Shown piece after piece: positions 4,701-46,696 of a DNA stretch of 64,000 nucleotides (position 1 is the stretch's first letter; every line of letters begins with the position of its first letter). Origin of the DNA: an archaeon (lineage in GTDB: Archaea > SpSt-1190 > DYHY01). The position numbers and the translations under genes were made by a program. The stretch spans positions 4,385-68,384 of the forward strand of contig JAZDJS010000048.1 of assembly GCA_043803745.1 (NCBI GenBank). The letters are read 5' to 3'. Below the pieces are notes generated by a model. That model had not been told where the DNA came from. It worked only from the letters and a program-made list of their open reading frames with translations, and did no database searches.

Positions 4701-5476
4701 TCCTCGGTAAATGTCGCGGAGTTTCCGGCAGTGTCAGTTACAGTGAACTCGAACGGGACAATTCCGGCAGGGTCTTCTGGATACATCTGGATGAATCCGT
4801 CGATTTCCGGGTCAATCCGCAGGGCTCCGCCAACGCTTGCAAGGCGGCCTTCGATTGTGAATGTTCCTAGTGTGAACTCTTCAGATGAGCCGGCTGCCTT
4901 GACATAGACATATGTCCATGGGCGGGCAAAGGAGGAATTGCCTGAAAAGTCGGAATTGATTCCGACTTGCTCGAATGTCGGGGCGGTCATGTCGAAAGTG
5001 ACGCTTGAACCGTCGGTCGTGGTCGTGACGGGATAAGTTTGAACTAGCAGGGAGCTGACTAGGGGAAGCGCATATGGGTATATCGAGAAAGGAACAATCC
5101 CTTCGGCATCCGATGATTGCATCGCATATTGGGAAACGTATGAAAAGCCGATTGCGGTTCCTTGGTTGGCGATTTCCTGAACAATCGGAACGGAGTGTCC
5201 GGCGATTGTAACTTCAGTCGTCGTTTCGTTAAGGAGCTGATCGGATGAGAACCTCAAAGTGACATTGTCGCCGACTTGCGCGTAAAGGGGGTTCTGGTTG
5301 TCGGAACTTATTCCAACTGGGAAAATGAATGGACCTGGAACCGGGGTCGCCATTGCCGGGGCAATCATCAGCGCTAAAATCGCGAAAATTGCGCAAAGCG
5401 CGGAAAGAAAACCGCCGAACCCCTTCTTGCCTGAAAAACCCGCTTCGTTGTCATAGTTCTGTTTCTTGTTTGTCAT
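1715..5476 (-). CDS. giant secreted surface protein (signal/anchor N-terminus, beta-propeller-like and parallel beta-helix repeats, Thr-rich stalk, conserved aromatic C-terminal tail)
   Basis: 1253 aa. The N-terminus has a basic stretch then a hydrophobic helix (ALCAIFAILALMIAPAMA). Internal N-x-I/V-x-x-N repeats are typical of right-handed beta-helix. The C-terminus is TTTVPTTTTIAP...GFFTGLFGAFQNFWNWLTGLF. Confidence 0.8.
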   Translation of the reverse strand: MTNKKQNYDNEAGFSGKKGFGGFLSALCAIFAILALMIAPAMATPVPGPFIFPVGISSDNQNPLYAQVGDNVTLRFSSDQLLNETTTEVTIAGHSVPIVQEIANQGTAIGFSYVSQYAMQSSDAEGIVPFSIYPYALPLVSSLLVQTYPVTTTTDGSSVTFDMTAPTFEQVGINSDFSGNSSFARPWTYVYVKAAGSSEEFTLGTFTIEGRLASVGGALRIDPEIDGFIQMYPEDPAGIVPFEFTVTDTAGNSATFTEENTTDSSFVHYDNRPSSVYVSKEYCDPNTQVTPDVLEQGPCGNDGHTWGYDAFNAVQAGVDAMFPAGSVYVVDNETYDEAVIMSKPGTIYGTDGGAVCGTAEICSLESEGSENLMTKISSVKIDDPETAFYWISTPYVIVTPKATISEGTTLVDEHGTVELTEGTWRESVLIQKHLRLIGAGVDNSIISVLPGENGISIYSGNATIEGLSILQFKGLDIIEPFSISAEFEETSSEGSGIYSSESDNIVLRNVKISYFAKGLDLHDGTNFEIYGNEISSNGVRKDDRSGIDLYEMSEVKIHDNTIDSNNVGIYSADSTGVVVEKNKIIDNELLGAEAEGEVIKAWRNWWGTASFAEIIGNVSGKVDFSFWCLDETCTTFAKPIETTTENLDLLNEFGLFETFAAGQGHLVGYNYPINGWTAQNTAFAVAPDGTIYKGYEDNLYTLDPLTGAESFKVQLNDLNDSSIIRPYAFAFDGNGILYMAAHGHVPSPCNDYLATVDTTTGDVSQIAKISYGDEYWYGGMNAIAFAPDGTFYGVKGSSTPQNSGSRLYTINKETGELTFVAIIQELFGEVENAEIQTGREFFTQGLAFSPSGILYGSGDTEGSSSDSVALGAGIGAMDSSSDGSIYKIDPSNGNVTFLSYTNPDTGYPGGMCFELSFSPEGKLYCYNYGSSDGPALVRVAGTTVFTNLAIGSGDSYAYPEDGTEITRGDGLPVDIRDFTADIFSFSASGLPANYSSVGAFQWGIVGQGLYFSPSMQISIYVGPAHNGGTLSIFRSLSPSGGRTQDGILDPTTCIVADGYCTFRATKASYYAAAAYSPPAPPVRGSGGSGGAPAETCRPDFALSAPADVETSTDFAEILVTLSVNGTCADYGTDITSSAPEGWRVDIGSTGLLKSGEEQTLTATVLVPEGADGTVQFTARIGGIDYTASTRVKSTKGAGSQGQPGQEEQQPEITTTVPTTTTIAPQQPPVGQTGFFTGLFGAFQNFWNWLTGLF

Positions 5477-5595: not shown

Positions 5596-5714
5596 AAAAG
5601 CGAAACTATGCAAAATTGCACAAAATACCAAAAAACGGGCAAATTTGCATGCTCCCTTTAAAGTGGCCACAAAATAACAAAGCTTAAAAAGGTGAAGGTA
5701 ACTAGGGAGGGACT
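5596..5714 (+). promoter_or_regulatory. divergent promoter region for the two giant surface-protein genes; SD GGAGGG 5 nt upstream of the ATG at 5715
   Basis: AT-rich segment with TATA-like CTTTAAAG / AGCTTAAAAAG boxes and a GGAGGG Shine-Dalgarno before 5715. Confidence 0.35.
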
Positions 5715-8700
5715 ATGGGGAAGTTTAGCAAGATTTTAGGACTAGTTGTAGTTTTGTCTGTTTTCGCAGCGTTTGCAGTCGGAGTCGGATTTTCGGTAAC
5801 GGAGCTGAAATATGACGACGGGACAATAGGTTATAGTGGGACTTGGCTTGATTCCGATGGCCAATACGTTGTCAAGTTCGCGCCCGCGCACAAGGGGGAA
5901 ATAACCTGGCTAGGGGCATATGTTTCAAAGGACGGCTCGGACGACGAATGGTGGGCTGGACTTTTGAATTCCGACTATTCAACACTTTCCCCATATGTAC
6001 TGAATTACATTTCGGGCTCAAGCGCCTGGAGATATGCAAGCTTCTCAACAGTCGTTTCCTCCCCATTCTATGCGGCAGTGAAACTCCAGGGATCTGATGA
6101 CGCCCGCCTAGGAAAGGACGGTTCTTCAACTTCAGGCTATAGCGAAGCCAACACAGGTTCCGGCTGGTCAGCGGTCTCAGGGAACCACATGATCCGCGCA
6201 TATATCGACTATTTCCCCGAAGCTTCAAGCATTTCCTTCTCGGAAAACCCGACTTCTGCAAGTTCAGTTACCGTTTATGCGACTTGCACCGAATACGATT
6301 CCGACGACGATGTTGACCACGCCCAAGTCCGGGTTGACGGCGGCTCCTGGGACTGGATGTCCGCTTCCGACGGGAGCTTTAATGAGAACTCCGAGAACGC
6401 ATACAAAACAATTTCGATTTCAGGTCTTTCTGATGGCGACCACACTGTCGAGGTCCGCTGCGAAGACGAGAACAGCAACTGGGGCGACCCGGTTTCGGCA
6501 ACCCTGACAAAGGGGACTTCAGACACGACCGCTCCGGTGACAACCGATGATGTTCCTTCCGGATGGAAGAACACGGATGTCACGGTGACTTTCACCTGCA
6601 CAGATTCGGGCTCTGGCTGCGACAAGGTCTATTACACAACTGACGGGAGCGAACCTGATTCCGGCTCCTCCTATGTCGATTCAGCCTCAAGCTGGCAGTT
6701 CACAATGTCCTCAGAAGGGCAATACACAATCAAATACAGGGGAGTTGACGTTGCAGGGAACTGGGAAACGACGAAGACTGCAGCAAACCTCCTTAGCATT
6801 GACAAGACCGCTCCGGGAATTTCCGGGGCTGCGACAGAAGGCCCTAACGGATTGAATGGCTGGTATGTCTCGGACGTCACGGTAAGATTCGACTGCACAG
6901 ACGACCTTTCCGGTCCGGTTGAATCCTTCTTTGACATTTTCATGACAACTGACGGAGCTGGCCAGTCGGCTTCCGGAACCTGCTACGACCTTGCGGGGAA
7001 TTCCGCAGGAACGACTGTCTCGAACATTGACATTGACAAGACAGTTCCAAGCATTTCCGGGACAGTCAGCCCCTCGCCAAACGGGGATGGCTGGAACAAG
7101 GAGGACGCTACAGTCCATTTCGACTGTTCCGACGCAACTTCCGGAATCTCCTCTTGCACATCAGACGTTCTCGTTACGACTGAAGGAGAAACTCTCGTTA
7201 CCGGGACTGCAATTGACAATGCGGGCAACTCCGCGACAGCCGACATAACGGTAAAACTTGACAAAACGGATCCGGTCACGGAAAGCTCATTTAACCCGGC
7301 AGCCCCAAACGGGCTTAACGGCTGGTATGTTACCGAACCGGAAATAACCCTGACTTTCACAGACGCAGACCCGTCCTCAGGGAAAAAATGGACGAAATAC
7401 AAGGTCAATGGCGGAGATGCTGAGACATATTCGGCTCCGTTCGCGCTTCCCGAAGGAATCCACGAACTGAAATTCCACTCAAAGGACAGGGCGGACAACA
7501 CTGAGGGCTGGAACACAATCTCGAACATAAAGGTCGACACGACTGCTCCCGAAGCGCCCGAATTCTCGGGAACTTCCCCATACTATGACGGAGACGGGGA
7601 CTTTTACGTTTCCTGGAGCTCTTCGAGCGATGCGACATCGGGAATAAGGGGCTATGCCCTATACCGGTCGCTTAACGAAGGGTCGTTCGTCCTCATGGGA
7701 GTTTTCCTCGACACAACCTACCACGAGCAAAGCCCCGGAATCGATTCAAGATACGGCTACAAGGTTTCCGCAATTGACAATGCGGGGAACGAAGGGGCTC
7801 AGAGCGAAGAGAAGGTTGTCGTAGTCGACAGGATGGACCCGACAGCGCCGCTTATGCACGACCTTCCGCCATATATCGGCGAAACAGAGGTTACTGCCTC
7901 CTGGGACCATGCGGCTGACACCGGCGTCTATCCTTCCGGAATATCGACATATGATGTCTATGTGAATAGCGCACTTGACGGCAGCACAACATATCCGGAC
8001 AACGACTATTACAAGGACTCGCTTGCGAACGAGCAGACCTACCTTTTCAAGACGAATGCCTGGGACAAATCAGACCCTGCAAACGAGGGTCCGATGTCAA
8101 ACGAGGTCGGGACAACTGTCGACCTGACTGACCCGGTCACAACCGCGATTTTCAACCCGGAGACTCCGAACGGGAACAACGGCTGGTATATCTCAAGACC
8201 GTCGATAACTCTTTCGGCAGTTGATTCGGGCTCGGGCGTCTACAAGACATATTATTGCTTCGACCAGATTGCTTCTGGAACCAGTTCCCTTGATGTTGAG
8301 ACTGAGGAGACTGAGGAGACTGGGGACAACGAGACTGTTGAAGGCGACCGCTGGCATCCGACAACAACAACGACTGTCGCACCAACACCATGCACGCCAT
8401 CCGCCGAATACACAGGACCCTTCCAGATAGACACGGAAGGGACCAACTATGTCAGGTTCTATTCGGTTGACAACGTCGGGAATGTGGAAACGGTCAATGA
8501 AGTCTCATTCAAGCAGGACCTTAACGAGCCGACGAACCAGTGGTTTTTCCTCAATGGAGGCAATTACTATTCGGACGACTCTGACGTTGGAGCGTGGTAT
8601 GATTCCGGGAAGGATACAAGCAAAGGCAGCGGACTTGACTATTGCGTAATTGACTGGGGAGACGATTCCCAGACAACTGTCTCGAAATCAAGCAACCACG

Positions 8701-10568
8701 TGCACCACACATATGCCGACGGCGAATATACCGCAAGCTATGTCTGCTATGACAATGCGGGGCACTCGAGCGAGCCTGAAACCGACGAGATTTTCGTTGA
8801 CACGGTAGACCCGGCAACATCAGCTGCGCTCAATCCGGCGGAGCCGGACGGGGACAACGGCTGGTATGTTTCTGAGGTTGAAGTCGCTCTGACTGCAACA
8901 GACCCGGAGCCAGCATCGGGAATATACCGGACCTATTACTGCGTTGACCAGATTCCAGATGGGAGCGGCGACGACGCAATTGAAGGAACTGAAGTTGACG
9001 GCGACTGGGGATGGCATCCTCCAAGGCCTTGCACTCCGAACACAAGATATACGCATCCGTTCGACGTCTCTGATGACGGGACGAACTATGTGCGGTTCTA
9101 TTCCGTTGACAAGGCTGGAAACGAGGAAGAAACCCAGACAATCTCTTTCAAGCAGGACGAGACAAACCCGGAAACCGACCACTCGGTTTCCCCAAGGAAC
9201 CCTGACGGGGACAACGAATGGTATGTCTCGGAAGTTGACGTGACTCTTGACGCTGACGATGACACATCCGGCGTCTACCAGACACTCTACTGCGTGAAGC
9301 AAAGCCTTGCCTGCGAAGAAGAGGAAGAAGGGGATGGCGAACCGGAACCAACTTGGTGGCATCCCCCTGCGCCGGAAGAGCCTGAATGCGAACCGGACAC
9401 TCTCTATGACGGGACTTTCACAGTGCTTCTAGAAGGGAAGACCTCAGTAACCTACATGTCAATTGACAATGCGGGAAACGAGGAGGAAATGCACACCTTC
9501 TCGTTCAAGCAGGACTGGACCGACCCGACAACGACAGCGACAACCGACCCGTCCGAACCGAACGGGAACAACAGCTGGTTCAACTCAACAGTTCAGTTCA
9601 ACCTTACCGCTGTTGACGGGCGTGCTGAAACGCCTTCCGAACCGGAAGGGGAAACAATCGAATCCGGCTGCTTCTGGTGGTGGTGGCAGCATCCGCCTGC
9701 GGATGGAGAAGTTCCATGCACCTCTGGAGTCCACAGAACGTACTATTGCATTGACTATGGCGCGGAAACTGGGGTTGTCGGCTGCTCAGCCGAATCCGAG
9801 GATTGCGGGGCATGCTACCCGAGGACAAGATACACGGAGCCTCTGAACCTGACCTATGAGGGACTGCAAACAATCCGGTTCTTCTCGGTTGACAAGGCCG
9901 GTAACCGCGAGGGAATCCAGGAACAGGGAATCTGGATTGACACGGTTGCCCCGGAAAGCACAATAACTGCTCCGGCGAACATGTCGAACTATTCGGCAAT
10001 CGGGACCCTTGTAATCAGGGGGAACAGCTCGGACGAGACAAGCGAAATCTTCGCAGTCGAAGTTGTTGTCAAGAACGCGGGAGGCTATGCGCTGATGAAC
10101 TGGACCGCTTCCGAAATTAACGCGACAGGGGACTGGAATTTCACCTGGACGCCTGGCGGATACGGGACCTACTACATAAGCTCGAGGGCAATCGATGCTG
10201 CGGGTAACTTTGAAACGGAGCCGGAAGAGATTGTTGTCTACTTCCCGGAGCCGCCTCTCAAGGTGCAAACCTATGGCGGGTTCTACGTAAGGACCTGTGG
10301 CAACGGGGTCTGCAACGCGAACATCGGCGAGAACGAACGGACCTGTCCGGAAGACTGCAAGGCTCCTGAAGAGGAAGAGCCTCTTGAGAACGCCGAAGAG
10401 CTAGTCAACCAAGTGACGACAACGACGGTCCAGCCGACGACAACGACGACGGTCCAACCCCAGCAAGGGACGCTTAACCCGAGACCGGGAATGCTCCCAA
10501 CAGGACGGTTCGTCCTTTTCGACCTGGCGGACCAGTTCTGGCAGTGGCTGTCTGGTTTGATGCAGTAA
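5715..10568 (+). CDS. giant secreted adhesin-like protein with at least 8 tandem NGWY-type Ig-like repeats, an FN3-like module, acidic stretches, a Cys motif, a Thr-rich stalk and a conserved aromatic C-terminal tail
   Basis: 1617 aa with an N-terminal signal peptide (MGKFSKILGLVVVLSVFAAFAVG). The unit P(N/D)G-x-NGWY-x-S-x-V-x-V-x-(F/L)-x-(C/A)-x-D-x-x-SG-(V/I) recurs at least 8 times, as in OmpL47-type / chitobiase-C Ig-like domains. It is followed by CGNGVCNANIGENERTCPEDC, a TTTTVQPTTTTT stalk and ...FVLFDLADQFWQWLSGLMQ. Confidence 0.85.
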   Translation: MGKFSKILGLVVVLSVFAAFAVGVGFSVTELKYDDGTIGYSGTWLDSDGQYVVKFAPAHKGEITWLGAYVSKDGSDDEWWAGLLNSDYSTLSPYVLNYISGSSAWRYASFSTVVSSPFYAAVKLQGSDDARLGKDGSSTSGYSEANTGSGWSAVSGNHMIRAYIDYFPEASSISFSENPTSASSVTVYATCTEYDSDDDVDHAQVRVDGGSWDWMSASDGSFNENSENAYKTISISGLSDGDHTVEVRCEDENSNWGDPVSATLTKGTSDTTAPVTTDDVPSGWKNTDVTVTFTCTDSGSGCDKVYYTTDGSEPDSGSSYVDSASSWQFTMSSEGQYTIKYRGVDVAGNWETTKTAANLLSIDKTAPGISGAATEGPNGLNGWYVSDVTVRFDCTDDLSGPVESFFDIFMTTDGAGQSASGTCYDLAGNSAGTTVSNIDIDKTVPSISGTVSPSPNGDGWNKEDATVHFDCSDATSGISSCTSDVLVTTEGETLVTGTAIDNAGNSATADITVKLDKTDPVTESSFNPAAPNGLNGWYVTEPEITLTFTDADPSSGKKWTKYKVNGGDAETYSAPFALPEGIHELKFHSKDRADNTEGWNTISNIKVDTTAPEAPEFSGTSPYYDGDGDFYVSWSSSSDATSGIRGYALYRSLNEGSFVLMGVFLDTTYHEQSPGIDSRYGYKVSAIDNAGNEGAQSEEKVVVVDRMDPTAPLMHDLPPYIGETEVTASWDHAADTGVYPSGISTYDVYVNSALDGSTTYPDNDYYKDSLANEQTYLFKTNAWDKSDPANEGPMSNEVGTTVDLTDPVTTAIFNPETPNGNNGWYISRPSITLSAVDSGSGVYKTYYCFDQIASGTSSLDVETEETEETGDNETVEGDRWHPTTTTTVAPTPCTPSAEYTGPFQIDTEGTNYVRFYSVDNVGNVETVNEVSFKQDLNEPTNQWFFLNGGNYYSDDSDVGAWYDSGKDTSKGSGLDYCVIDWGDDSQTTVSKSSNHVHHTYADGEYTASYVCYDNAGHSSEPETDEIFVDTVDPATSAALNPAEPDGDNGWYVSEVEVALTATDPEPASGIYRTYYCVDQIPDGSGDDAIEGTEVDGDWGWHPPRPCTPNTRYTHPFDVSDDGTNYVRFYSVDKAGNEEETQTISFKQDETNPETDHSVSPRNPDGDNEWYVSEVDVTLDADDDTSGVYQTLYCVKQSLACEEEEEGDGEPEPTWWHPPAPEEPECEPDTLYDGTFTVLLEGKTSVTYMSIDNAGNEEEMHTFSFKQDWTDPTTTATTDPSEPNGNNSWFNSTVQFNLTAVDGRAETPSEPEGETIESGCFWWWWQHPPADGEVPCTSGVHRTYYCIDYGAETGVVGCSAESEDCGACYPRTRYTEPLNLTYEGLQTIRFFSVDKAGNREGIQEQGIWIDTVAPESTITAPANMSNYSAIGTLVIRGNSSDETSEIFAVEVVVKNAGGYALMNWTASEINATGDWNFTWTPGGYGTYYISSRAIDAAGNFETEPEEIVVYFPEPPLKVQTYGGFYVRTCGNGVCNANIGENERTCPEDCKAPEEEEPLENAEELVNQVTTTTVQPTTTTTVQPQQGTLNPRPGMLPTGRFVLFDLADQFWQWLSGLMQ

Positions 10569-15696: not shown

Positions 15697-17868
15697 ATGG
15701 GCTCTTTGCGGAAACGTTCGGTCTTTCTCCTTTTGCTCCTGTGTCTCCTGCTTTCGCTCGCCAACTCTGCCGAAATCTCCTCCTGCGGAACCGAGATCTC
15801 CTCTTCCGGAAGCTATTCCCTCTCAAAGAACATCTCCGGCTCAAGCATAAACATCCAGAACGTGTACCTGGCTTGCCTGAAGGTTTCCTCATCCCACGTT
15901 TCAATTGACTGCGCGAATTTTTCAATAACGGAGAGCTCCCCGGGAAAAACTGTCGGAATTTTCGTCCAGGGGCTTGTGAGGAACGTCACAATTCGCAACT
16001 GCAAGAGCCTTTCCGGATTTGAAACCGGAATCTACCTTTCCGGGGCTCTTGACGGGGGGATTTCGGGCTCGAATATCACCGGGAACATCAACGGAATCAG
16101 GCTGATTTCCTCGGAAAACTTCAACCTTACCGAAAGCAATGTTTCGGGGAACGTCATCGGGCTCTACAGCTATTTCGGGGAACGGAATTTCGCGGTCGGG
16201 AACATCTTTTCCCGGAACCGCCTCGTCGGAATAAAGGTCGAGGGACCGACTGCCCAGCGGCTTCCCGGACAGGGGAACTTCTTCTTTTGGAACAACGTTT
16301 CCGGAAGCGAGCAGGGATTCGAAATAACTAGGGCGAACGGGAACCTGCTCATAGGCAATCAGATCTCAAACTCAAGCATGTACGGGATACGCATCGCATA
16401 CTCAAGGGACAACAACATCTCCCTGAACGCGATTTCGGGCTCGAAGAGGGTCGGCCTCTTCCTTGACACCTCCTCGGGCAACCTGTTCAGCTGCAACAAT
16501 TTCTCCGGAAACCTTGTTGACATTGACACCTACTATGCAAACGAGAACCTTGGAAACGCATCCTGCGACGGGGCCAATGTAACGATTGGAACGCCCCAAA
16601 ACCAGACCAGGACAACTGCGCAGCTAACGACGATCCCTGCTTGCGCCTGCACCCCTTGGGTTTCCCGGGGATGCAATACGGGAAGCTGCCAATACGGAAG
16701 CGAATTCTCGGAAAGGTCCTGCGCACCGGCGGGATGCGCATCGGAGAAAACGTGCATAATAAACGCATATTGCTATCGGCAGATTCCACTGGAAAACGCG
16801 CCCCAGACGAGCGTTCCCATCGAATCGTCCTGCCCTGCGAACTGCGACGATTCCAATCCTTGCACTGTCGATTCCTGCTCGGAAGAAACGGGCTTCAATT
16901 GCCGCCACGCAAGCCTACCTGAAGGGGCTTCCTGCGGAAAAGACCTTTTCTGCAAGGCAACTAGCGAATGCGCGCAAAAAAGCGAGCCACAGCAAAGCTG
17001 CCCTGCTTGTTCCGAACCGGGTGCTTGGTCCGGATGCTTGGATGGCGTGCATAGCCGGACAATACAGATATGCGGCCAGGAAACCGGATATTTCTGCGTT
17101 CCATACATTGAAAGGGGGGCTTGCCTGCTTCCGGCGCAGACAACCGTCCCTGCCGCAACAGCGCCCCCTTCCTCGTGCAGGGAGAACTCGGAATGCCCGG
17201 CAACGAATGTCTGCTCGGGAGGGCAGTGCGTTCCCGCAAAGCTGGTTCTTGTTTTTGTTCCGCTCAATTGGACTGGGAGCGCGCAGAGTTTCTCGGAAGA
17301 GGCCGATCGTCAGGCGAATTTCCTTCTGGCGAACCTGCCCCTTTCCGGCTGCCCGGAGAAGGTCAAGATTCTGAAGGGAACCGAACCCTGCGCTGCGCAG
17401 ATATCCTGCAAATATTGCGGCGAGGCGCTTTCAATCCGGAGCTGCGCAAAAAGGGTTTCGGCAAGCGTTGACATTGCGATAGGGCTCACGAACCTGGACT
17501 CCCTCTGCAAGACGGAAATCCGCGGATTCTCCTGCGGTGCGGGGGGCGTTTTCGTCAAATCGGGCGGTTCCGAGGTTCTTGCCCACGAGGTTGGGCACGA
17601 GTTCGGTCTCCGCGACGAATATTGCAATTACGGAACCCGCTGCGGGGAATTCGCAGCTCCAAATCCCCTCCGCGCGGAATACGGCTGCAATCCCTCGGAT
17701 GCGAACTGCTGCTGGTGCTCCGGAAGCTATTCAGTCTGCTGCTATGGGAACGTTAACGAGTTCGGCGGACGCTCGATCATGAGTTATGCCGGAGCCCCCG
17801 CCCCCAGGGCTTTCGACTATCCGGCGCTTGCGCACCTTAAAAGCCTGGAAAAACTGAGGTGTAACTGA
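15697..17868 (+). CDS. secreted parallel beta-helix (NosD/CASH-like) protein with a Cys-rich region and a C-terminal HExxH zinc-metallopeptidase-like motif
   Basis: 723 aa with a signal peptide (MGSLRKRSVFLLLLLCLLLSLANSA). It has about 10 repeats of the form G-I/N-x-x-x-x-S-x-N-x-I/F-S/T-G-N. The central third carries more than 20 Cys, and the C-terminus has LAHEVGHEFGLRDEYC (HExxHxxGxxDE). Confidence 0.7.
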   Translation: MGSLRKRSVFLLLLLCLLLSLANSAEISSCGTEISSSGSYSLSKNISGSSINIQNVYLACLKVSSSHVSIDCANFSITESSPGKTVGIFVQGLVRNVTIRNCKSLSGFETGIYLSGALDGGISGSNITGNINGIRLISSENFNLTESNVSGNVIGLYSYFGERNFAVGNIFSRNRLVGIKVEGPTAQRLPGQGNFFFWNNVSGSEQGFEITRANGNLLIGNQISNSSMYGIRIAYSRDNNISLNAISGSKRVGLFLDTSSGNLFSCNNFSGNLVDIDTYYANENLGNASCDGANVTIGTPQNQTRTTAQLTTIPACACTPWVSRGCNTGSCQYGSEFSERSCAPAGCASEKTCIINAYCYRQIPLENAPQTSVPIESSCPANCDDSNPCTVDSCSEETGFNCRHASLPEGASCGKDLFCKATSECAQKSEPQQSCPACSEPGAWSGCLDGVHSRTIQICGQETGYFCVPYIERGACLLPAQTTVPAATAPPSSCRENSECPATNVCSGGQCVPAKLVLVFVPLNWTGSAQSFSEEADRQANFLLANLPLSGCPEKVKILKGTEPCAAQISCKYCGEALSIRSCAKRVSASVDIAIGLTNLDSLCKTEIRGFSCGAGGVFVKSGGSEVLAHEVGHEFGLRDEYCNYGTRCGEFAAPNPLRAEYGCNPSDANCCWCSGSYSVCCYGNVNEFGGRSIMSYAGAPAPRAFDYPALAHLKSLEKLRCN

Positions 17869-21612: not shown

Positions 21613-23439
21613 ATGAAAATAGGCCTTGAGATTCACCAGCAGCTGAAAACGAGCAAGCTGTTCTGCCGCTGCCCCTCGGTTCTCAGGGAGGTTAAGCCTG
21701 ACGTTATTGTCGAAAGGCGCCTCAGGGCCGTTGCAAGCGAAACCGGCGCCCGCGACATTACCAGCGAAACCGAGTTTGCAAAGGGCAGGAAATTCATCTA
21801 CCAGGCCTATTCGGACTCGACCTGCCTGATAGAAATTGACGAGGCCCCCCCGAAGGAAATCAACCCGGAGGCGCTCCAGATTGCCTGCACAATTGCTGGC
21901 GCCCTGAACTGCCGGGTCGTCCCGGAGCTCCACGTTATGAGGAAGGCGATAATAGACGGCTCGTGCCCCTCGAGCTTCCAAAGGACCGCGCTCCTTGCAA
22001 AGGACGGTTTTGTCGAGGCCCGTTCCGGAAAGAAAATCAGGATAGAATCGATTTGCATCGAGGAGGATGCGGGGAGGATAATTGCATCAGACAATTCAAG
22101 CGCAACTTTCAGGGTCGACCGCCTCGGGATTCCTCTCGTTGAGATAACGACCGCTCCGGAAATCGAATCGCCGGAAGAAGCGCGGGAGGTCGCGGAACGG
22201 ATTGGAACGGTTCTCAGGCTTACCGGAAAGGTTGTCCGGGGACTTGGCTCGATAAGGCAGGACCTCAACGTCTCGGTTCCCGAAGGAGCGCGTGTCGAGA
22301 TAAAGGGCGTCCAGCAACTCGACCAGATTCCCGAACTTGTCCGAATGGAGGCTGAGCGGCAGAAGAGCCTTGCAGGGATTGCCAAGAAATATTCCGACAG
22401 GATAATTGCAATTGAGCGGGCAGGCGGCCCAAAATCTGCGGAAGTAACTGAGGTTTTCCTTGAAACCGGATGCAAACTGCTGGCTGGCTTGGAAATACAC
22501 GCGGCAATCCTTCCAGGTCTTGCGGGGATACTTGACGAGACCCTCCACGAGGGAAAGCGTTTTGGAAAGGAGGTTGCGGAAAGGATGCGCATCCTGACAA
22601 CTGCACGGGGCTTCCTGCACACTGACGAACTTCCCGCATATGGCGTCACAGCCGAAGAGGTCCGGGATTTGCGAGCCGCAACCGGCGCGGGCGAAAATGA
22701 CCTGATCTGCCTCGTCGCTGGAAAGGGACCCGAAGCACACCTTCCGCTGATGCCTGTTGTTGAAAGAATACTTCTCTCGAATCTCGGGGTTCCCGGCGAG
22801 ACGCGGAAGGCGAATCCCGACTGCTCGACAAGCTTCCTGAGGCCCATTTCCGGGAGCTCGCGCTTCTATCCGGAAACTGACGTTGCCCCGGCGCAAATGG
22901 GCCCCGTTAGAGCGGATTCGGTTGAATCCCCGGAGGAACGGATGGGGAAGCTGGAAAAGCTCGGGCTCCCTGAAAAGCTTGCGAAGGGACTGCTCCTTTC
23001 GGAAAACTATCCCCTCTTTCTCCTTGCGCTTGAAAAGCGCGTGCAGCCGGTTCTTGCGGCAACAATTGTCGAGGAAACTCTTCCGTACCTGAGAAGAAAG
23101 GGGATTGAAATCGACCGGGTTCCGGACAGCGACTATTCGGTGCTGTTTGAACTTGTTTCTTCGGGAAAGCTCCCCCGAGAAGGAATTCCTGACGCAATGG
23201 AGAAACTTGCGAGACACGAGGGGATTTCAAAACTCGCGGAAGCCGGGCGAGTTTCCGAAGCGCAGGTCGCCGGATTCGCAAGAAAGCTCATCTTTGAACG
23301 CAGGGAGTACATTCTCAAGGAGGGCGCGGAACGCGCAATATCCGGCCTGATGGGTGAACTGATGAAGGAATTTAAGGGGAAATTCTCCGGGACGCTGCTG
23401 AAGGAAATTCTTTCGAAGGAGCTTCTTGGAAATGCCTGA
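21613..23439 (+). CDS. gatE: Glu-tRNA(Gln) amidotransferase subunit E
   Basis: 608 aa. It starts MKIGLEIHQQL...KLFCRCPS (GatB/GatE signature) with GatE-length insertions. Confidence 0.9.
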   Translation: MKIGLEIHQQLKTSKLFCRCPSVLREVKPDVIVERRLRAVASETGARDITSETEFAKGRKFIYQAYSDSTCLIEIDEAPPKEINPEALQIACTIAGALNCRVVPELHVMRKAIIDGSCPSSFQRTALLAKDGFVEARSGKKIRIESICIEEDAGRIIASDNSSATFRVDRLGIPLVEITTAPEIESPEEAREVAERIGTVLRLTGKVVRGLGSIRQDLNVSVPEGARVEIKGVQQLDQIPELVRMEAERQKSLAGIAKKYSDRIIAIERAGGPKSAEVTEVFLETGCKLLAGLEIHAAILPGLAGILDETLHEGKRFGKEVAERMRILTTARGFLHTDELPAYGVTAEEVRDLRAATGAGENDLICLVAGKGPEAHLPLMPVVERILLSNLGVPGETRKANPDCSTSFLRPISGSSRFYPETDVAPAQMGPVRADSVESPEERMGKLEKLGLPEKLAKGLLLSENYPLFLLALEKRVQPVLAATIVEETLPYLRRKGIEIDRVPDSDYSVLFELVSSGKLPREGIPDAMEKLARHEGISKLAEAGRVSEAQVAGFARKLIFERREYILKEGAERAISGLMGELMKEFKGKFSGTLLKEILSKELLGNA

Positions 23440-24919
23440 AGGCTCCCCGCCCAAGGGCTTGCCCAAGGGCTTGCCCAAGGGCTCGCCAAAGGGCTCGCCC
23501 GAAAGTTTCGGCTTTTCAATAATAGGGAGGAAATCGGGCGGCGAGGAAATCGGGCGGACTGATTTTGCGCTGATCCGGCAAGAGGGCTTGGACTTCCCGG
23601 AGTACCTTCCCTTCGGCTTGGAAACTCCGGACGGGGATGATTTGTTCCGGATTGGAAAAATCGTCAAGGCATACCAGAACATCCCGGAAATAACCGAAAC
23701 TGGAGAGAAGCGGCGGGAGGAAATAGGGAAGCTTGTTTCGAAATATCTCGGGCTCCTTTCCGGGAAGAGGCTTTCGCGGGAAAAGGCCGAGCTTTATGAG
23801 CGGGTCGTTTTCTCGGCAACGGGGGAAGGGCGCGGTCCGCTTGAATTCCTTGTCGGAGACCCGCAAATCGAGGAAATAATGGTCAACGGAACGAGCCAGC
23901 CCATTTTCATCTTCCACCGCAGGTTCGGAATGTGCGCTACGAACCTAAGGTTCGATTCGGAAGAATACCTGATTGAAAAGGCGAACCAGCTCCTTTTCCC
24001 CGGCAACAAAAGGGTCGATTCATCCAAGCCTTTCGCGCATGCAATTCTTCCGAACGGGGACCGGATCTCGGTCGAAATACCTCCGCTTGCGAAGGAACCC
24101 TGCATCGACATAAGGAAATTCTCGGAAAAGCCGATGACTCTTCCGGAACTCGTTAAACTGGGGATGCTCGACCTGCGGGCTGCCGCTTTCCTTTTCCTTG
24201 CCGTTGAGTCGGGCGTCTGCAACATCGGGGTCGTCGGCAACACGGGGGCCGGGAAGACAACGCTCCTTGGGGCGCTTCTGAGGCTGGCTCCGCCCTACCA
24301 GAGAGTTATTCTTGTCGAGGAAATACCGGAAATATCCGTTCCGCACAAGCACAACGTCCGACTTGTCCAGGTCGAGCATCTGGGAATCGGGATGGCGGAG
24401 CTTGTCCGGGAAACGCTGAGGCTCCGGCCGGACAGGGTTGTTGTCGGGGAAGTGAGGAGCCCCTCGGAAGTCCAGGCTCTCCGGGATTCCTGCCTTTCGG
24501 GCCAGGCATATTCCACCTATTTCACATACCATTCCGAAAGCGCGCAGGCGGCGGTTGAGCGGCTTGAAAGCCAGGGAATTTCGCGGAAGGACTGCGAATA
24601 TTTCGGCCTCCTCGTGGTTTGCAGGAGGTTCGAGGACCGGGACGGAAAAACGCGGAGGATTGTCTCGGAGATTTCCGAAATCGGAGCCGACGGGCGGACC
24701 CTGCCGCTTTTCAAGCACGATTTCAAAAGGAACCGCTGGATTCGCAGGCTCCGGGGGAAAAGCAGGGTTGAAGCGCGCCTGCTGGAGACTTTCATTTCGG
24801 GAAAGGGTGGGCTCTCCCGCGAAATTGCGAAGAGGGAGAAGCTTCTGAAAAGATTCTCGGACGCGGAGGATGCGGAGTTTTTCTCGGGAATCTGGAGGGC
24901 GGCCCGGAAAGGTGGCTGA
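23426..24919 (+). CDS. type IV pilus / Tad-like secretion ATPase (FlaI/TadA/VirB11 superfamily)
   Basis: 497 aa with Walker A GVVGNTGAGKTTLLGAL and an Asp box/His box region RPDRVVVGEVRS. The N-terminus carries PKGLPKGLPKGSPKGSP repeats, and the start overlaps the gatE stop. Confidence 0.85.
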   Translation: MEMPEGSPPKGLPKGLPKGSPKGSPESFGFSIIGRKSGGEEIGRTDFALIRQEGLDFPEYLPFGLETPDGDDLFRIGKIVKAYQNIPEITETGEKRREEIGKLVSKYLGLLSGKRLSREKAELYERVVFSATGEGRGPLEFLVGDPQIEEIMVNGTSQPIFIFHRRFGMCATNLRFDSEEYLIEKANQLLFPGNKRVDSSKPFAHAILPNGDRISVEIPPLAKEPCIDIRKFSEKPMTLPELVKLGMLDLRAAAFLFLAVESGVCNIGVVGNTGAGKTTLLGALLRLAPPYQRVILVEEIPEISVPHKHNVRLVQVEHLGIGMAELVRETLRLRPDRVVVGEVRSPSEVQALRDSCLSGQAYSTYFTYHSESAQAAVERLESQGISRKDCEYFGLLVVCRRFEDRDGKTRRIVSEISEIGADGRTLPLFKHDFKRNRWIRRLRGKSRVEARLLETFISGKGGLSREIAKREKLLKRFSDAEDAEFFSGIWRAARKGG

Positions 24920-25694
24920 CAAAAAAAGGGGCCTCATCCGGAGACAGTTCCGCTTGGCGGAGCTTGAACGGGAGCTTGCCGGCGTCGGGACGGACCTTCC
25001 GCTTGGCAAGCTTGCTTTTGGCGCAGCCGGGCTTGCATCCGCTCTTGCGGCCCTTTCGGCGCTCTCGGTTTTCAACGGGAATCTTCCCCTCGCGGCAATT
25101 TCCCTCGGGGGCGTTCTCCTTGCCCTGCGCATCCCCGAAATCTCCGCGAAAATCGCGTGCGCTGTCGCGCGAAAGTCCCTTGAAAGGGAACTGCCTTTCT
25201 TTCTCTCAAGATATTCCCATCTTGCGGCCCTTGGCGTGAATCCGCTGAAGGCGTTGGAGATTTCGGTGGGCTTTGGGGGTCCTGTCGGGAAGGTTGCGGG
25301 GGGTGCGCTTTTTTCCGCAAGGAAGGGGATTCCGCTTGAAAAAGCGCTTGAGAATGCTTCGGAGGAGACTTTGTCAGAGCGGGCTGAAGAGGCGTTCTCG
25401 GCGATTTCGTCGGTTCTTTCCGACGGTTATACCGGAAGCGCAAGGGAGCTTATCGACGGCATCTACAAGGGGCTTCTTGAGGAACACAAGGCGGCGCTTG
25501 AGGAATATTCGGCGAGGAGCCAGATAGTCTTCCTTTCGGTCGTTTTCTCGACTGCAATAATCCCGGCTCTTGCGGCTTTCGCCCTTGCTTTTTCCGAATC
25601 CGGAAACCCGGTCGCCGCGCCGGTCCTTTTCATCCTGGCCTTTCCGGCAATTGCCGCCGCACAGTTCCTTTACATGAGGTTCTCGTCGCCATGA
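24870..25694 (+). CDS. TadB/TadC/FlaJ-like pilus assembly membrane protein (T2SS-F domain)
   Basis: 274 aa with N- and C-terminal TM hairpins flanking a cytoplasmic helical domain; lies immediately downstream of the ATPase. Confidence 0.6.
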   Translation: MRSFSRESGGRPGKVADKKRGLIRRQFRLAELERELAGVGTDLPLGKLAFGAAGLASALAALSALSVFNGNLPLAAISLGGVLLALRIPEISAKIACAVARKSLERELPFFLSRYSHLAALGVNPLKALEISVGFGGPVGKVAGGALFSARKGIPLEKALENASEETLSERAEEAFSAISSVLSDGYTGSARELIDGIYKGLLEEHKAALEEYSARSQIVFLSVVFSTAIIPALAAFALAFSESGNPVAAPVLFILAFPAIAAAQFLYMRFSSP

Positions 25695-26389
25695 TCCGGA
25701 GCCTGTTCGAAAAATCCCCCGAAGCGCGCATCGAACGGGAACTCGTCCCGTTCCTTCTCAGACTTTCGCGGATTCCGAAGGGGACTCCTGCAAGGGCCCT
25801 TGTGGGCAGGGCGGATGGGGGCGAAATAGGAAAGCTCCTGAACTCCGCTGAACGCGAATATCTGAAGGGTTCCGGCCGAAAGAGCCTGCAGGCGTGCATA
25901 CTGAAAAGCTTCGGAAGGTTCAGGGGGAGAAAAGTTAGGATTTTCGCGGAAACTCTCGTGACCGGAATCTCGAACAACTTCGACGCGGCTGAGCTTGTCA
26001 GGAAAACGGCAAGCGAAATACAGGAAATCTCCGCGATTGAGGAGAAGGGCCGGGCTGCCCGCTCAATCCAGAAATACACAATCCTCGCCTCCTCGGGATT
26101 TTTCGTCCCGTTCATCCTCGGCGCAACAAGCTCGATAATCGTCCTGGTTTCCGGGATTTCGAAGGGACTTGCCGGCTTTGGAATCCGGACAACGGGAAGC
26201 CCGGAGCTCCTTTCCGGGACCCTCCTCGCATACTCGCTGATCCTTCCAGGAATATCTGCGGGATTCCTTTCCTTCGGGATCGAATCAGAAGGCGGCGGAA
26301 GAGTCCGGCGCTTCCTAAGACTTTCCGCGCTGCTTTCGGCTTCCGCGCTTGCGGCTTTCTTAATTGGAAAGCGGCTGCTTGGCGTATGA
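25691..26389 (+). CDS. TadC/FlaJ-like pilus assembly membrane protein (second platform subunit)
   Basis: 232 aa. Its start overlaps the upstream stop (ATGA), and it has the same TM / soluble / TM architecture. Confidence 0.6.
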   Translation: MIRSLFEKSPEARIERELVPFLLRLSRIPKGTPARALVGRADGGEIGKLLNSAEREYLKGSGRKSLQACILKSFGRFRGRKVRIFAETLVTGISNNFDAAELVRKTASEIQEISAIEEKGRAARSIQKYTILASSGFFVPFILGATSSIIVLVSGISKGLAGFGIRTTGSPELLSGTLLAYSLILPGISAGFLSFGIESEGGGRVRRFLRLSALLSASALAAFLIGKRLLGV

Positions 26390-26526
26390 ACGCGGTGCCT
26401 GAAGAATTGGGGAAATCGGACAATGAGGTGAACTCCGCGGGGCGTCGCGGTCGAAGACCGCTTGTATTTGAAAGGCTGGAAGATTCGAGCGGAAAGGATT
26501 AAAAGGTTCGCCGGCTTCCAGTTGGA

Positions 26527-26700
26527 ATGAAGGGAAAAAAGGCGCTCTCAACTCTTGAATGGATTGTTCTTGCGGCAATCGCAATCCTGATGATAACCTA
26601 CGTCCTCGGCTACTGGTCCGGAATCTGGGGTTCGGCGACCGGGGCTGCTGAGAAGGCAAACTCTTCCTTCGCTTCCGCGCTGTCCAAGCTGTTCAAGTGA
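26527..26700 (+). CDS. Flp/Tad-type mini-pilin with a class III signal peptide (not in the ORF track, 57 aa)
   Basis: Translated by hand as MKGKKA|LSTLEWIVLAAIAILMITYVLGYWSGIWGSATGAAEKANSSFASALSKLFK. It has a basic N-terminus, an Ala at -1, Glu at +5 and an aromatic at +6 (Flp-like G/A-xxxxEY motif), then a 20-aa hydrophobic helix. Confidence 0.6.
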   Translation: MKGKKALSTLEWIVLAAIAILMITYVLGYWSGIWGSATGAAEKANSSFASALSKLFK

Positions 26701-37225: not shown

Positions 37226-39028
37226 GTGAACAGAAAAATGGCGAACGATTCATTCCAGCCCCCGAGGGGGACGCGCGACCTCCTCCCGAAGGAGCTTTCG
37301 GTGAGGAACAGGATTTGCGAAATACTTTCCGGGACTGCCGAAACGTACGGCTTTGGGCCGATAGACACCCCGGTTTTCGAGAATTTCGACTTCCTTGCGA
37401 AAAAGTCCGGGCCCGAGGTGAAGGAGCAGATATACTATTTCAAGGACAAGGCGGGGCGCGAGCTCGGGCTCAGGTTTGATTTCACCGTCCCCATTGCAAG
37501 GCTTGTCATGAACAACCCCCAGCTGCCGAAACCTCTCCGGCTTTACGTCCTTGACAAGGCATGGAGATATGAGGAAATCTCGGCAGGCAGGTTCAGGGAG
37601 TTCTCCCAGTTGGACGTCGAGATACTCGGCTCGAAAGAGCTTATTGTCGATGCCGAGACAATCGCCGTCGGCGTCGCCCTCCTGACCGTTTTCGGGATCC
37701 CGAAAATAAAGGTGAAGATAAACAACAGGGAAATCCTTGACGGCTTTGCCAAAAGCATCGGGATTTCCGAGGGCTCTGCTCGGGACGATTTCTTCAGGAC
37801 AATTGACAAAAGGGAGAAGCTTTCCGAATCGGCGTTCCGGGAGGCGCTCGGGAAGCTGGGGCTTTCCGAGGAAACCGCAGGGCAGGTTTCGGAATATTGC
37901 GGCCTTTCCGGAGAGGCCGGGGATGTGATCAAGCGGGCTGAAAAGCTGCTCAACCAGAATTCCTTGATTTCCGGCGGGATCGAGAAGCTGAAGAAACTTT
38001 TCAGCCTCCTCAAGAATTACGGGGTTGAGAAATACTGCGAGCTTGACCTCTCGATTGCAAGGGGGCTGGATTATTACACTGGCATCATCTTCGAGGTCAA
38101 GGCGGGGAACTACGGGCTTTCGATTATCGGCGGCGGCAGATATGACAAGCTCATCGGGCTTTACTCGGGAGAGGAAATGCCTGCGACCGGCTTTGCAATG
38201 GGCATTGACCGGCTTTACGAGCTTCTTGGGAAGGAAGGGCGGCTGCCGGCATCGGGCTCGGGAAGCAAGGCGCTCGTGGTTCCGATCGGGGAACCCGCGC
38301 TTCCAAAGGCAATCGAGCTTGTCCAGGGAATCAGGCTTGCCGGGGTCAACTCGGAAATAGACGTCATGGGGCGGAGCGTTGGGAAGAACCTCGAGTTCGC
38401 CGACAAGGCGAAGATGCCTTTTGCGGTAATCGTCGGGGAGAAGGAGCTTTCGGCGCGCAAGGCAACGGTGAAGGATCTCCGGACCGGGGAAAGCGAGGCT
38501 GTGGATTTCGCGCAAGTCCCTTTCTACATCGCCGGGAAACTGAGCAGGGATTTCGAGGTTCCGGGCAAGTCCGAAGAGAAAACTTCTGCAATCGCGGGTT
38601 CGGGGGATTTCAAGGCGCGCCTCCACACGGCAGACCACATCCTTACGGGCGTTCTTGGTCAGCTTGCAAAGGGCTTCGAGGAACGGGCGCTGGAATTTGC
38701 GGAAACCCACTGCAGGTGGGATTGCGTCTCGGATGACGACTTGAGGAAGCTGAAGGCGGAAATCGAGAAAAGCGTGAACGAGATTATTTCTCGGAATCTG
38801 CAGGTTTCGCAAAAGGAGATTCCGAGGGCCGAAGCTGAGGAAAAATTCGGTAAGCTCAGGGCCCCAAAGGAGCTTGAGGAAATAACCGTCTACGAAATAG
38901 CCGGCTTCAACGAGCTTCCTTGCGGAGGCCCCCACGTCCGAAGCACGGCGCAGGTCGGCAAGTTCAAAATCCTGAAAATTGAGAAGAAAGGGGCGAAAGC
39001 CTGGTCGATAAGGTATACTGTTGAATAA
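37226..39028 (+). CDS. hisS: histidyl-tRNA synthetase fused to a C-terminal AlaX-S/tRNA_SAD-like editing domain
   Basis: It has the N-terminal HisRS-specific RGTRD motif, motif 2 (WRYEEISAGRFREFSQLDVE), motif 3 (GGGRYDKL) and an anticodon-binding domain. The last 150 aa or so carry HTADHIL (HxxxH) and CGGPH (CxxxH), as in AlaRS/AlaX editing domains. Confidence 0.8.
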   Translation: MNRKMANDSFQPPRGTRDLLPKELSVRNRICEILSGTAETYGFGPIDTPVFENFDFLAKKSGPEVKEQIYYFKDKAGRELGLRFDFTVPIARLVMNNPQLPKPLRLYVLDKAWRYEEISAGRFREFSQLDVEILGSKELIVDAETIAVGVALLTVFGIPKIKVKINNREILDGFAKSIGISEGSARDDFFRTIDKREKLSESAFREALGKLGLSEETAGQVSEYCGLSGEAGDVIKRAEKLLNQNSLISGGIEKLKKLFSLLKNYGVEKYCELDLSIARGLDYYTGIIFEVKAGNYGLSIIGGGRYDKLIGLYSGEEMPATGFAMGIDRLYELLGKEGRLPASGSGSKALVVPIGEPALPKAIELVQGIRLAGVNSEIDVMGRSVGKNLEFADKAKMPFAVIVGEKELSARKATVKDLRTGESEAVDFAQVPFYIAGKLSRDFEVPGKSEEKTSAIAGSGDFKARLHTADHILTGVLGQLAKGFEERALEFAETHCRWDCVSDDDLRKLKAEIEKSVNEIISRNLQVSQKEIPRAEAEEKFGKLRAPKELEEITVYEIAGFNELPCGGPHVRSTAQVGKFKILKIEKKGAKAWSIRYTVE

Positions 39029-46033: not shown

Positions 46034-46696
46034 ATGGCGGAACTTCGAGTATTGGAAACGACCGACTTGGAAACCTTCCAGAGCTATCTTGAAACTTGGC
46101 GCCCGCCGGAGGCGGTGCTTGTAAGCAACGGCCCTGATGCTCCGAAAACTGCGGAGTTCATCCAGCAAATTGGCGAAGGCACCCATTTTCTTTTCGCTTA
46201 CACGGCAGCGCCCGAGGAAAACCTGCTTGAAGCGCTTTCAGGCAGAGGCGTGCTGTGTGTTGAGGGAAATTTCCTTGTATACGGGGCTGACGAACGCGAG
46301 AATGTTTCCGGAACTGCACTGAAAACCCATTCAAGGTTCTTCGGAGATTCTCTTGCCATTTACCAGGTCTTCGGGCCTGTCTGCTCTGCTGAGCTTCCTG
46401 CAACTGATTGCGATGAGGTTGTTGCCGGGAACCTGAAATGGCTCGATGCGCTCAAGGTTCGCGGGATAAAAACGGCTGAAACTTTCGGCTGCGGCGGATG
46501 CTGCTCACGGGCGGTTGCGCTTGCTGATGACGTGGTTTCCTTGATTACCCAGCTTCCTCCGGAATATTCCGGGAACCCTTCCGGCTGGGCGCGCGAGGTT
46601 CTTGGCGGGGTGCAGATTCGCCCCGGAAAATACGCGGCAAAACAGGTTCCGCAGTATTGCGAGGGCGTTCCGGTCGGCGCGCTGCTCCTGCGATAA
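46034..46696 (+). CDS. hypothetical protein, paralog A of a tandem pair
   Basis: 220 aa. It shares blocks with the next gene: ...RPPEAVLV..., GDSLAIYQVFGP, PPEYSGNPSGWAREVLGGVQIRP. Confidence 0.5.
   Translation: MAELRVLETTDLETFQSYLETWRPPEAVLVSNGPDAPKTAEFIQQIGEGTHFLFAYTAAPEENLLEALSGRGVLCVEGNFLVYGADERENVSGTALKTHSRFFGDSLAIYQVFGPVCSAELPATDCDEVVAGNLKWLDALKVRGIKTAETFGCGGCCSRAVALADDVVSLITQLPPEYSGNPSGWAREVLGGVQIRPGKYAAKQVPQYCEGVPVGALLLR

Follow-up and report, generated by a model that had tools for sequence, protein, structure and literature searches.

Archaea adhere and make contact mainly by means of type IV filaments, and where the archaeon is ultra-small and host-dependent these organelles are the first candidates for cell–cell attachment. 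The described systems closest to the locus presented here are the Tad/Flp pilus of bacteria and the Epd pili of archaea, and the methanococcal Epd system is currently held to be the source of bacterial Tad. In its monoderm actinobacterial form, the Tad/Flp pilus is built by one ATPase, two platform proteins with a single T2SSF domain each, and a pilin of 50–80 amino acids (aa) which is nearly helix-only. The tadA-tadB-tadC-flp cluster of Micrococcus luteus has this gene order, with the prepilin peptidase encoded elsewhere and without TadZ (PMC4322843). The Epd pili (Makarova clade 1; Methanococcus, Methanocaldococcus and Thermococcus) also have a split platform and a short major pilin (PMC4858521, PMC6668835); these systems further contain several pilin families, EppA, which is a peptidase with nine transmembrane (TM) segments, and a FleN/MinD or FlaH-like ATPase, and their pilins usually stand alone and start with Gln at position +1 (PMC4858521). 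Here we describe a four-gene locus in a 64,000-nucleotide stretch of an archaeal contig (JAZDJS010000048.1, positions 4,385 to 68,384, assembly GCA_043803745.1; hereafter the window), which in all likelihood encodes a minimal type IV filament machine assembling a thin, all-helical pilus from a 57-aa protein.

The four genes are located on the + strand between positions 23432 and 26700, directly 3′ of gatE, and encode a T2SSE-family ATPase, two platform proteins with one T2SSF domain each and the 57-aa protein (Table 1). The content is that of the actinobacterial Tad/Flp locus, and the order ATPase, platform, platform, flp is also present in the Actinomycetes and Acidimicrobiia loci that we fetched. 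Pilins of both systems have a small residue at the processing site, followed by xxxx-Glu-aromatic. However, the pilin of the window has Trp instead of Tyr at +6, with G, A or S at −1, and the 64-kb window lacks TadE/F/G pseudopilins, TadD/RcpC and a secretin, the last of which is not expected in archaea. With the Epd pili the locus shares the archaeal host, the split platform and the short major pilin, and the Methanocaldococcus lauensis locus L101 also has the order ATPase, T2SSF, T2SSF. In contrast to Epd systems, the locus consists of four genes with one pilin, which has Leu at +1, its ATPase is ~37% identical to Epd-like representatives, and no EppA-like gene is present in the window. An earlier first-pass annotation, made from the sequence alone, had called the locus Tad/Epd-like. 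This description is correct for the architecture but is not demonstrated as phylogenetic membership; the ATPase belongs to a DPANN-type family that differs from bacterial CpaF and from the Methanocaldococcus Epd-like reference.

The 57-aa protein has the properties of a prepilin. The first-pass annotation had read a 174-nucleotide (nt) gene here, beginning with MKGKKA and carrying a class III signal with Ala at −1, Glu at +5 and an aromatic residue at +6. The sequence is exactly as it was claimed, and a FlaFind-type pattern search recovers the signal; the mature N-terminus starts with Leu at +1 and the aromatic residue at +6 is Trp. Among the 4426 six-frame start-to-stop candidates of the window, this open reading frame (ORF) is the only one that combines the FlaFind-type pattern with a hydrophobic stretch. 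The gene had also been described as unannotated, which is true for the ORF track that was available at that time but not for GenBank, where an entry named 'MAG: hypothetical protein V1820_05875 [archaeon]' (MAG, metagenome-assembled genome) on a 74.7-kb contig has the same 57 residues.

A profile search over 5.8 billion clusters reveals 20 homologous pilin clusters with lengths of 52–83 aa, none of which has a Pfam family. In the alignment of 22 sequences (A8), the leader is 3–20 aa long, has a net positive charge in every case and terminates in G, A or S, whereas LSTLEW at the start of the mature protein is nearly invariant, Glu+5 and Trp+6 being invariant. The mature length is 47–53 residues in 20 of the 22 sequences. 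A variable basic leader in front of a constant mature N-terminus is the pattern expected of a processed prepilin. The ratio of nonsynonymous to synonymous substitutions (dN/dS) is ~0.06, with dN 0.037 and dS 0.64 for the closest pair; the comparison of the window pilin with its relatives gives pN 0.13 and pS 0.7–0.8, the synonymous sites being saturated. Among the closest relatives the pilin is also better conserved (~72% identity) than the ATPase of the same genomes (~58%). Because of the ~20 relatives, the conserved position and the low dN/dS, we consider this small ORF to be a real gene. AlphaFold2 models the protein as one long helix (residues 9–56, predicted local distance difference test 83), in agreement with the single hydrophobic helix proposed in the first-pass annotation. 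An N-x-S/T sequon (NSS) at mature position 39 is conserved in the subclade of the window pilin and suggests N-glycosylation.

The profile of the pilin family aligns with that of bacterial Flp proteins, collected as ORFs beside bacterial CpaF genes, over 47 columns (hhalign 88.9%, E 2.4e-6), and both the cleavage glycine and the Glu-aromatic pair fall in register. Cross-matches with plain hidden Markov models (HMMs) are marginal (E 0.1–0.4). The family would thus work like Flp but form a separate sequence family. The size of the protein had been noted as Flp-like and as untypical of archaeal pilins; the first part stands, while the size is not exceptional, since short Epd pilins are known (PMC6668835, PMC4858521). 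Two further members deserve mention. P0125 is labelled 'predicted Na+-dependent transporter' in JGI/IMG, which is an annotation error for a 57-aa prepilin. A metagenome contig of low GC content (34%) encodes a 128-aa protein (L099, 3562–3948, − strand) with the sequence ...KSG|LSTLEWIIIAVIVII... and a Cys-rich C-terminal part, and it appears to be an extended pilin of this family that carries a head domain.

The four genes keep their order (ATPase, platform, platform, small pilin) in eight or more independent loci from archaeal MAGs or metagenomes, among them L001, L002 (= L093/L097), L003, L004 (= L008), L006, L007 and L095. The loci bear the labels Altiarchaeota, Undinarchaeota or 'archaeon'; L004/L008 belongs to an Altiarchaeota MAG and L007, with a pilin of 83 aa, to an Undinarchaeota MAG. 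P0013 and P0139, each listed on a longest ENA contig of 15,185 bp, suggest a ninth co-location. The synteny of gatD/gatE with the pilus module is kept across the relatives. In the lineage of P0007 the machinery locus (L005) has no pilin, and the pilin is present alone in L088 and L087; the assembly of L088 (GCA_041643025.1) is the neighbouring accession to that of L005 (GCA_041643015.1). This agrees with reports that archaeal pilins can be encoded in trans (PMC4858521). Both stand-alone pilin genes are followed by a gene for a conserved protein of ~145 aa (L087, 10418–10846; L088, 10294–10734; + strand), to which no family is assigned and which has two TM segments as well as a coiled-coil tail rich in charged residues. 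In a metagenome pattern scan for the pilin, six of the ten matches are accounted for by chance.

The ATPase, which contains NIGVVGNTGAGKTTLL, matches Pfam T2SSE with an E-value of 1.3e-32 (113 bits, cutoff 24.9) and is identical to P0001, 'ATPase, T2SS/T4P/T4SS family [archaeon]'. It has a Walker A motif (GNTGAGKTT), an Asp box (VEEIPE), a Walker B region (RPDRVVVGEVR) and a His box (YFTYH), and the catalytic residues of all four are invariant across the alignment of its clade. Among the solved structures of the PDB, the best scores are those of CpaF (130 bits), AfGspE2 (123 bits) and FlaI (118 bits), followed by VirB11 (62 bits). The assignment to the FlaI/TadA family, for which the first-pass annotation had cited the Walker A motif, is supported at the level of the PilB/FlaI/TadA superfamily by the T2SSE match, the motifs and the structural matches. 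In NCBIfam, the TadA-type model TIGR03819 ('conjugal transfer-associated') is the top match with 161.7 bits, far below its cutoff of 373, and the FlaI model (138.6 bits, cutoff 550) as well as VirB11 (108 bits, cutoff 250) and TrbB (111 bits, cutoff 305) also stay below theirs. In contrast to an archaellum, where FlaI is the motor, no archaellin or FlaH gene is present in the window.

The N-terminus of the ATPase contains the repeat which the first-pass annotation had pointed out, and which Tandem Repeats Finder resolves into 4.4 copies of a 12-nt period with 90% matches. It is missing from the relatives P0002–P0005 and is hence lineage-specific. In-frame TTG codons occur within the repeat; the start of the ATPase is uncertain and may lie inside it. 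The overlap of this start with gatE, also noted at first pass, is 8 nt for the ATG or 14 nt for the TTG start, the gatE stop codon being at 23437–23439 and gatE itself being identified by Pfam.

The two genes that follow had been described as small platform-like membrane proteins of the TadB/TadC kind, and the T2SSF type is borne out by profile and Pfam searches. Platform protein 1 on its own matches Pfam T2SSF only weakly and below the threshold (E 0.0017), but the profile of its orthologues (A5) matches PilC (3jc8, 8.6e-6; 2whn, 9.5e-4) and GspF (2.8e-3) in the PDB. Platform protein 2 itself has no Pfam match, and three of nine orthologues match T2SSF (best 5.6e-5). The two profiles (A5 and A6) are homologous to each other (hhalign 96.9%, E 1.6e-10). 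Platform 1 could also start at an in-frame GTG at 24912, in which case the protein would have 260 aa and its gene would overlap the ATPase stop by 8 nt; the ATG of platform 2 overlaps the platform 1 stop (ATGA). We tried to assign the two genes to TadB and TadC individually, using bacterial TadB/TadC (two usable pairs only), the fused platform of a DPANN archaeon and the Methanocaldococcus pair for comparison, and dropped the assignment as the scores were too weak or contradictory.

That fused platform comes from locus L089, a member of the DPANN-type family in which the platform is a single T2SSF gene of 596 aa. The profile of platform 1 aligns to its residues 104–296 (E 2.7e-13) and that of platform 2 to its residues 373–593 (E 1.1e-13), so that, judged by these alignments, the two platform genes are the colinear N- and C-terminal halves of a fused platform. 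As the halves meet at an ATGA junction, the arrangement is what a simple fission would leave. Both forms exist in the DPANN family, where L009 is split and L089 is fused. Denise et al. regard platform fission as a derived character that Epd-like and Tad systems have in common (PMC6668835). The split seen here may repeat that fission independently; alternatively, similarity may understate how near the family is to Epd/Tad. Because the two genes correspond to colinear halves of a fused gene in a sister family, the platform split either arose repeatedly or has a greater age than assumed.

The position of the ATPase was analysed by an exhaustive profile search over 1.84 billion representatives, with the matches sorted by motif. 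More than 110 clusters with the Walker A motif GNTG[SA]GKT[TS] and the His box GQxxGxYxTxH outscore bacterial CpaF in this search; those members that carry a name are from Micrarchaeia/Micrarchaeota and Diapherotrites MAGs. This DPANN-type family is the nearest to the ATPase of the window, with which it has motif signatures in common, and its platform is homologous over the full length. However, L089, which is the only member locus read with a full-length platform, has no LSTLEW pilin beside it. A word-indexed search had placed bacterial CpaF as the next-nearest group, which was an artefact of the pre-filter and of database abundance, and among the matches listed in a profile scan of genome contigs with the ATPase alignment, there are five archaeal loci, the rest being mostly bacterial CpaF.

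The window clade, with the motifs GNTGAGKT and GQxxxTYFTYH, joins the DPANN family in 80–100% of bootstrap bipartitions. The trees were built by neighbour joining only, with one verified locus as the Epd-like reference, namely L101 with the Methanocaldococcus lauensis 'CpaF family' protein P0285, and deep support was taken from explicit bipartition counts with sites and model varied. The bipartition that unites the DPANN family with bacterial CpaF has 12–62% support, and that of CpaF with the Epd-like group 0–13%; an apparent 100% support for the window family with bacterial CpaF was a distortion caused by re-rooting. The ATPase of the window clade is about equidistant (32–38% core identity) from all non-DPANN groups, with 37.7% (208 bits) to bacterial CpaF, whose His box is GHDGSxxTxHA, 37.2% to the Epd-like group including P0285, and 31.6% to FlaI/GspE2 as the farthest. 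Bacterial CpaF is nearer to the Epd-like group (42.7%, 259 bits) than to the window clade. On these comparisons, the ATPase is placed as a branch of a large DPANN-type pilus ATPase family and has no demonstrable place in the CpaF clade of bacterial Tad or in the methanococcal Epd clade.

It could be asked whether, among living archaea, the window clade and the DPANN family together are the nearest kin of the bacterial Tad/Flp pilus, ahead of methanococcal Epd. In favour of this are an order of genes that actinobacterial tad clusters also have, a processing motif of the Flp type and the bipartition with CpaF of up to 62% (neighbour joining). However, raw similarity and HMM cross-scores place the Epd-like ATPases closer to CpaF, and the platform split seen here may be an independent fission, so that we regard such a relationship as doubtful. 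If it were true, a four-gene module resembling this one would be what passed between archaea and monoderm bacteria, in either direction.

Other ATPase loci showed two features worth recording. In an uncultured archaeon (L009, 5812–7581, + strand), a related ATPase of 589 aa is extended at its N-terminus by a region in which two cysteine clusters of the CxxCxxCxxxC type occur, much as if a 4Fe-4S ferredoxin domain had been joined to the motor ATPase of a pilus; two split platform genes come next. The Epd-like locus of L101 is directly preceded by a gene for a TFIIB homologue (5679–7943, + strand) that bears an intein (Intein_splicing, LAGLIDADG), in agreement with reports that TFIIB paralogues accompany archaeal pilus loci (PMC4858521).

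According to the mechanism that we propose, the prepilin would insert into the membrane and would be cut after Ala6 by an A24-type aspartic prepilin peptidase encoded elsewhere, leaving a 51-residue subunit that starts with LSTLEW. By analogy with the established structure of type IV pilins, Glu+5 would neutralise the N-terminal amine of the neighbouring subunit in the filament core. The ATPase, as a hexamer placed on a heterodimer of the two half-size T2SSF platforms, would use ATP to lift the subunits into the fibre, and a secretin would not be needed in a single-membrane archaeon. The likely role of the filament in this small-celled archaeon would be attachment to surfaces or to partner or host cells.

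Several results weigh against this proposal. The pilin matches neither Flp_Fap nor Class_IIIsignal of Pfam even at E ≤ 1, and it matches no solved structure by sequence or by fold (Foldseek), for which a lone helix is uninformative. The link to Flp is therefore based on aligning two profiles over a short and mostly hydrophobic stretch. In the 64-kb window there is no A24 prepilin peptidase, as the first-pass annotation had also remarked for the vicinity: all ORFs of at least 120 aa with three or more predicted TM segments were Pfam-checked or otherwise identified, and none of the membrane ORFs has a GxGD motif. A prepilin peptidase was also not found in the precomputed Pfam lists of the related loci fetched. 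Minor pilins or a second class III ORF, an ATPase of the TadZ/FlaH/MinD/KaiC type and an adhesin with a class III signal are likewise absent from the window. The missing peptidase is not a refutation, because actinobacterial tad clusters also encode the peptidase elsewhere.

Among the competing explanations, the one closest to our proposal keeps the same machine but gives it DNA uptake (natural transformation) or a retractile pseudopilus as its main job, instead of adhesion. The tadA-tadB-tadC-flp-type clusters of M. luteus serve in such a role, and the locus matches them in gene order and content, in the peptidase being elsewhere and in the lack of TadZ (PMC4322843); genome-reduced archaea would also gain from scavenging DNA or nucleotides. 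However, no ComEA/ComEC-like or nuclease genes are located beside the locus in the window or in its relatives, and the sole function demonstrated for Epd pili of archaea is adhesion (PMC6668835). Function is not readable from sequence, and on balance we consider the uptake role unlikely. It is more improbable still that the small protein is retained in the membrane as a piston, pseudopilin or regulatory or anchoring helix of an exporter, for example of large surface proteins. The presence of a single pilin-like gene, the lack of minor pilins and the large secreted proteins encoded nearby would fit such a partner, but those proteins have Sec-type and not class III signals and are unlinked to the module in other lineages, and a variable leader in front of an invariant mature N-terminus with Glu+5 is the signature of a polymerising pilin.

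A conjugation ATPase of the VirB11/TrbB type, with the locus as part of a mobile element, has very little in its favour. Both families are among the lower NCBIfam matches and the top model carries 'conjugal transfer-associated' in its name, but VirB11 reaches 62 bits against 118–130 bits for the pilus and secretion motors in the PDB, and the two families reach 108–111 bits against 139–162 bits in NCBIfam. T2SSF genes and a prepilin are present, whereas no relaxase, VirB4 or VirD4 is found in the window; the gatD/gatE synteny and the normal composition also argue against it. The first-pass annotation had named clustering with such ATPases and a pilin not conserved at the locus as evidence against its own reading; the ATPase matches CpaF, AfGspE2 and FlaI far better than VirB11, and the position of the pilin is kept in relatives. 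That the 174-nt ORF arose by chance and the locus has no pilin can practically be dismissed. The FlaFind-type pattern with a hydrophobic run does occur in ~16% of simulated 64-kb sequences (0.18 expected per 64 kb, with the same dinucleotide content), but a chance ORF would not have 20 homologous clusters, a conserved position and a dN/dS of ~0.06, and the stricter pattern [KR][GAS]xxxxE[YWF] with a hydrophobic stretch appeared in none of 100 simulations.

Taken as a pilus assembly machine, the module is near the minimal size for such a system, with one motor, a split platform and one 51-residue subunit. We found no paper describing this pilin family or the four-gene module, and the module is most likely an undescribed member of an already well-known kind of machine, not a new kind. 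The pilin family is new and unnamed, has no Pfam model and comprises ~20 clusters among 5.8 billion. It could be used to mark pili in Altiarchaeota-, Undinarchaeota- and related MAGs, where the annotation says 'hypothetical', and the module is a practical target for reconstitution and cryo-electron microscopy.

The pilin gene is separated from platform 2 by a spacer of 137 nt. Within this spacer, the element AAAGGATTAAAAGG lies equally far from the pilin ATG in the window, in L002 and in L003, and conservation does not extend to the remainder of the spacer. Its ATTAAAA part is centred ~25 nt before the ATG. The pilin is therefore probably transcribed separately, as a leaderless mRNA, from its own TATA-type promoter, which would let it be made in excess over the machinery. 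A terminator-like hairpin further upstream is a weak feature of a consensus scan; the region has 12 such sites where 9.0 are expected, which is not significant, and the RNA of the spacer has no exceptional structure (z = 0.08). A 38-aa ORF (26386–26502) was treated as spurious, as the spacer that it occupies is missing in L002 and L003.

Table 1. Features of the pilus locus and its immediate flanks. Positions are those of the 64,000-nt window.
Feature	Position	Strand	Remarks
gatE	21613-23439	+	Pfam GatB_N, GAD, GatB_Yqey
Secretion/pilus motor ATPase	23432-24919	+	495 aa from ATG (GenBank start); TTG at 23426 gives 497 aa
In-frame tandem repeat encoding PKGL/PKGS (PKGLPKGLPKGSPKGSP) at ATPase N-terminus	23448-23500	+	Tandem Repeats Finder
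Platform protein 1, single T2SSF domain	24870-25694	+	274 aa from ATG
Platform protein 2, divergent single T2SSF-type domain	25691-26389	+	232 aa
Terminator-like hairpin	26447-26461, T-rich tail to 26470	+	Consensus scan; weak feature
Putative archaeal B recognition element (BRE)/TATA promoter AAAGGATTAAAAGG	26493-26506	+	Conserved motif upstream of pilin ATG
Prepilin, 57 aa	26527-26700	+	Leader MKGKKA; predicted cleavage after Ala6; mature protein 51 aa from LSTLEW
Soluble protein of no identified family, 228 aa	26705-27391	+	Starts 5 nt after pilin stop

The surroundings of the locus contain gatD and genes for a Na+/H+ exchanger, FtsZ, histidyl-tRNA synthetase (HisRS), SufB and a cysteine desulfurase (SufS). 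The base composition is even across the window, with no GC anomaly. Because of this chromosomal housekeeping context and the even composition, we conclude that the pilus module is not part of a mobile element. Neither the Rfam nor the tRNA scan of the 64-kb window gave a match.

The gene for the 228-aa protein, possibly co-transcribed with the pilin gene, occupies the same position in L001–L003 (40–63% identity, with many aromatic and charged residues invariant) and is not beside the pilin in more distant lineages. The protein has no match in Pfam, NCBIfam and PDB and one marginal match in PHROGs (E 0.0065), to a family of unknown function. We rejected it as a component of the machine, as it is soluble and has no class III signal. 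A GNAT acetyltransferase is also among the proteins encoded in the flanks of the locus.

The window also encodes three large secreted proteins with Sec-type signals (1715–5476, − strand, 1253 aa; 5715–10568, + strand, 1617 aa; 15697–17868, + strand, 723 aa), among which beta-helix/NosD, Ig-like, chitobiase-C and reprolysin-like domains are distributed. All three are candidates for surface proteins or adhesins. In L002 and L003, too, the NosD protein and the next gene, of 214 aa, are found in synteny upstream of the pilus genes. Two adjacent ORFs on the + strand (46034–46696, 220 aa; 46710–47402, 230 aa) have no Pfam match. Finally, the HisRS of the window (37226–39028, + strand) carries, in addition to the tRNA-synt_His and anticodon domains, an extra tRNA_SAD domain at its C-terminus, which is a domain usually at home in Thr- and Ala-tRNA synthetases and their editing homologues.

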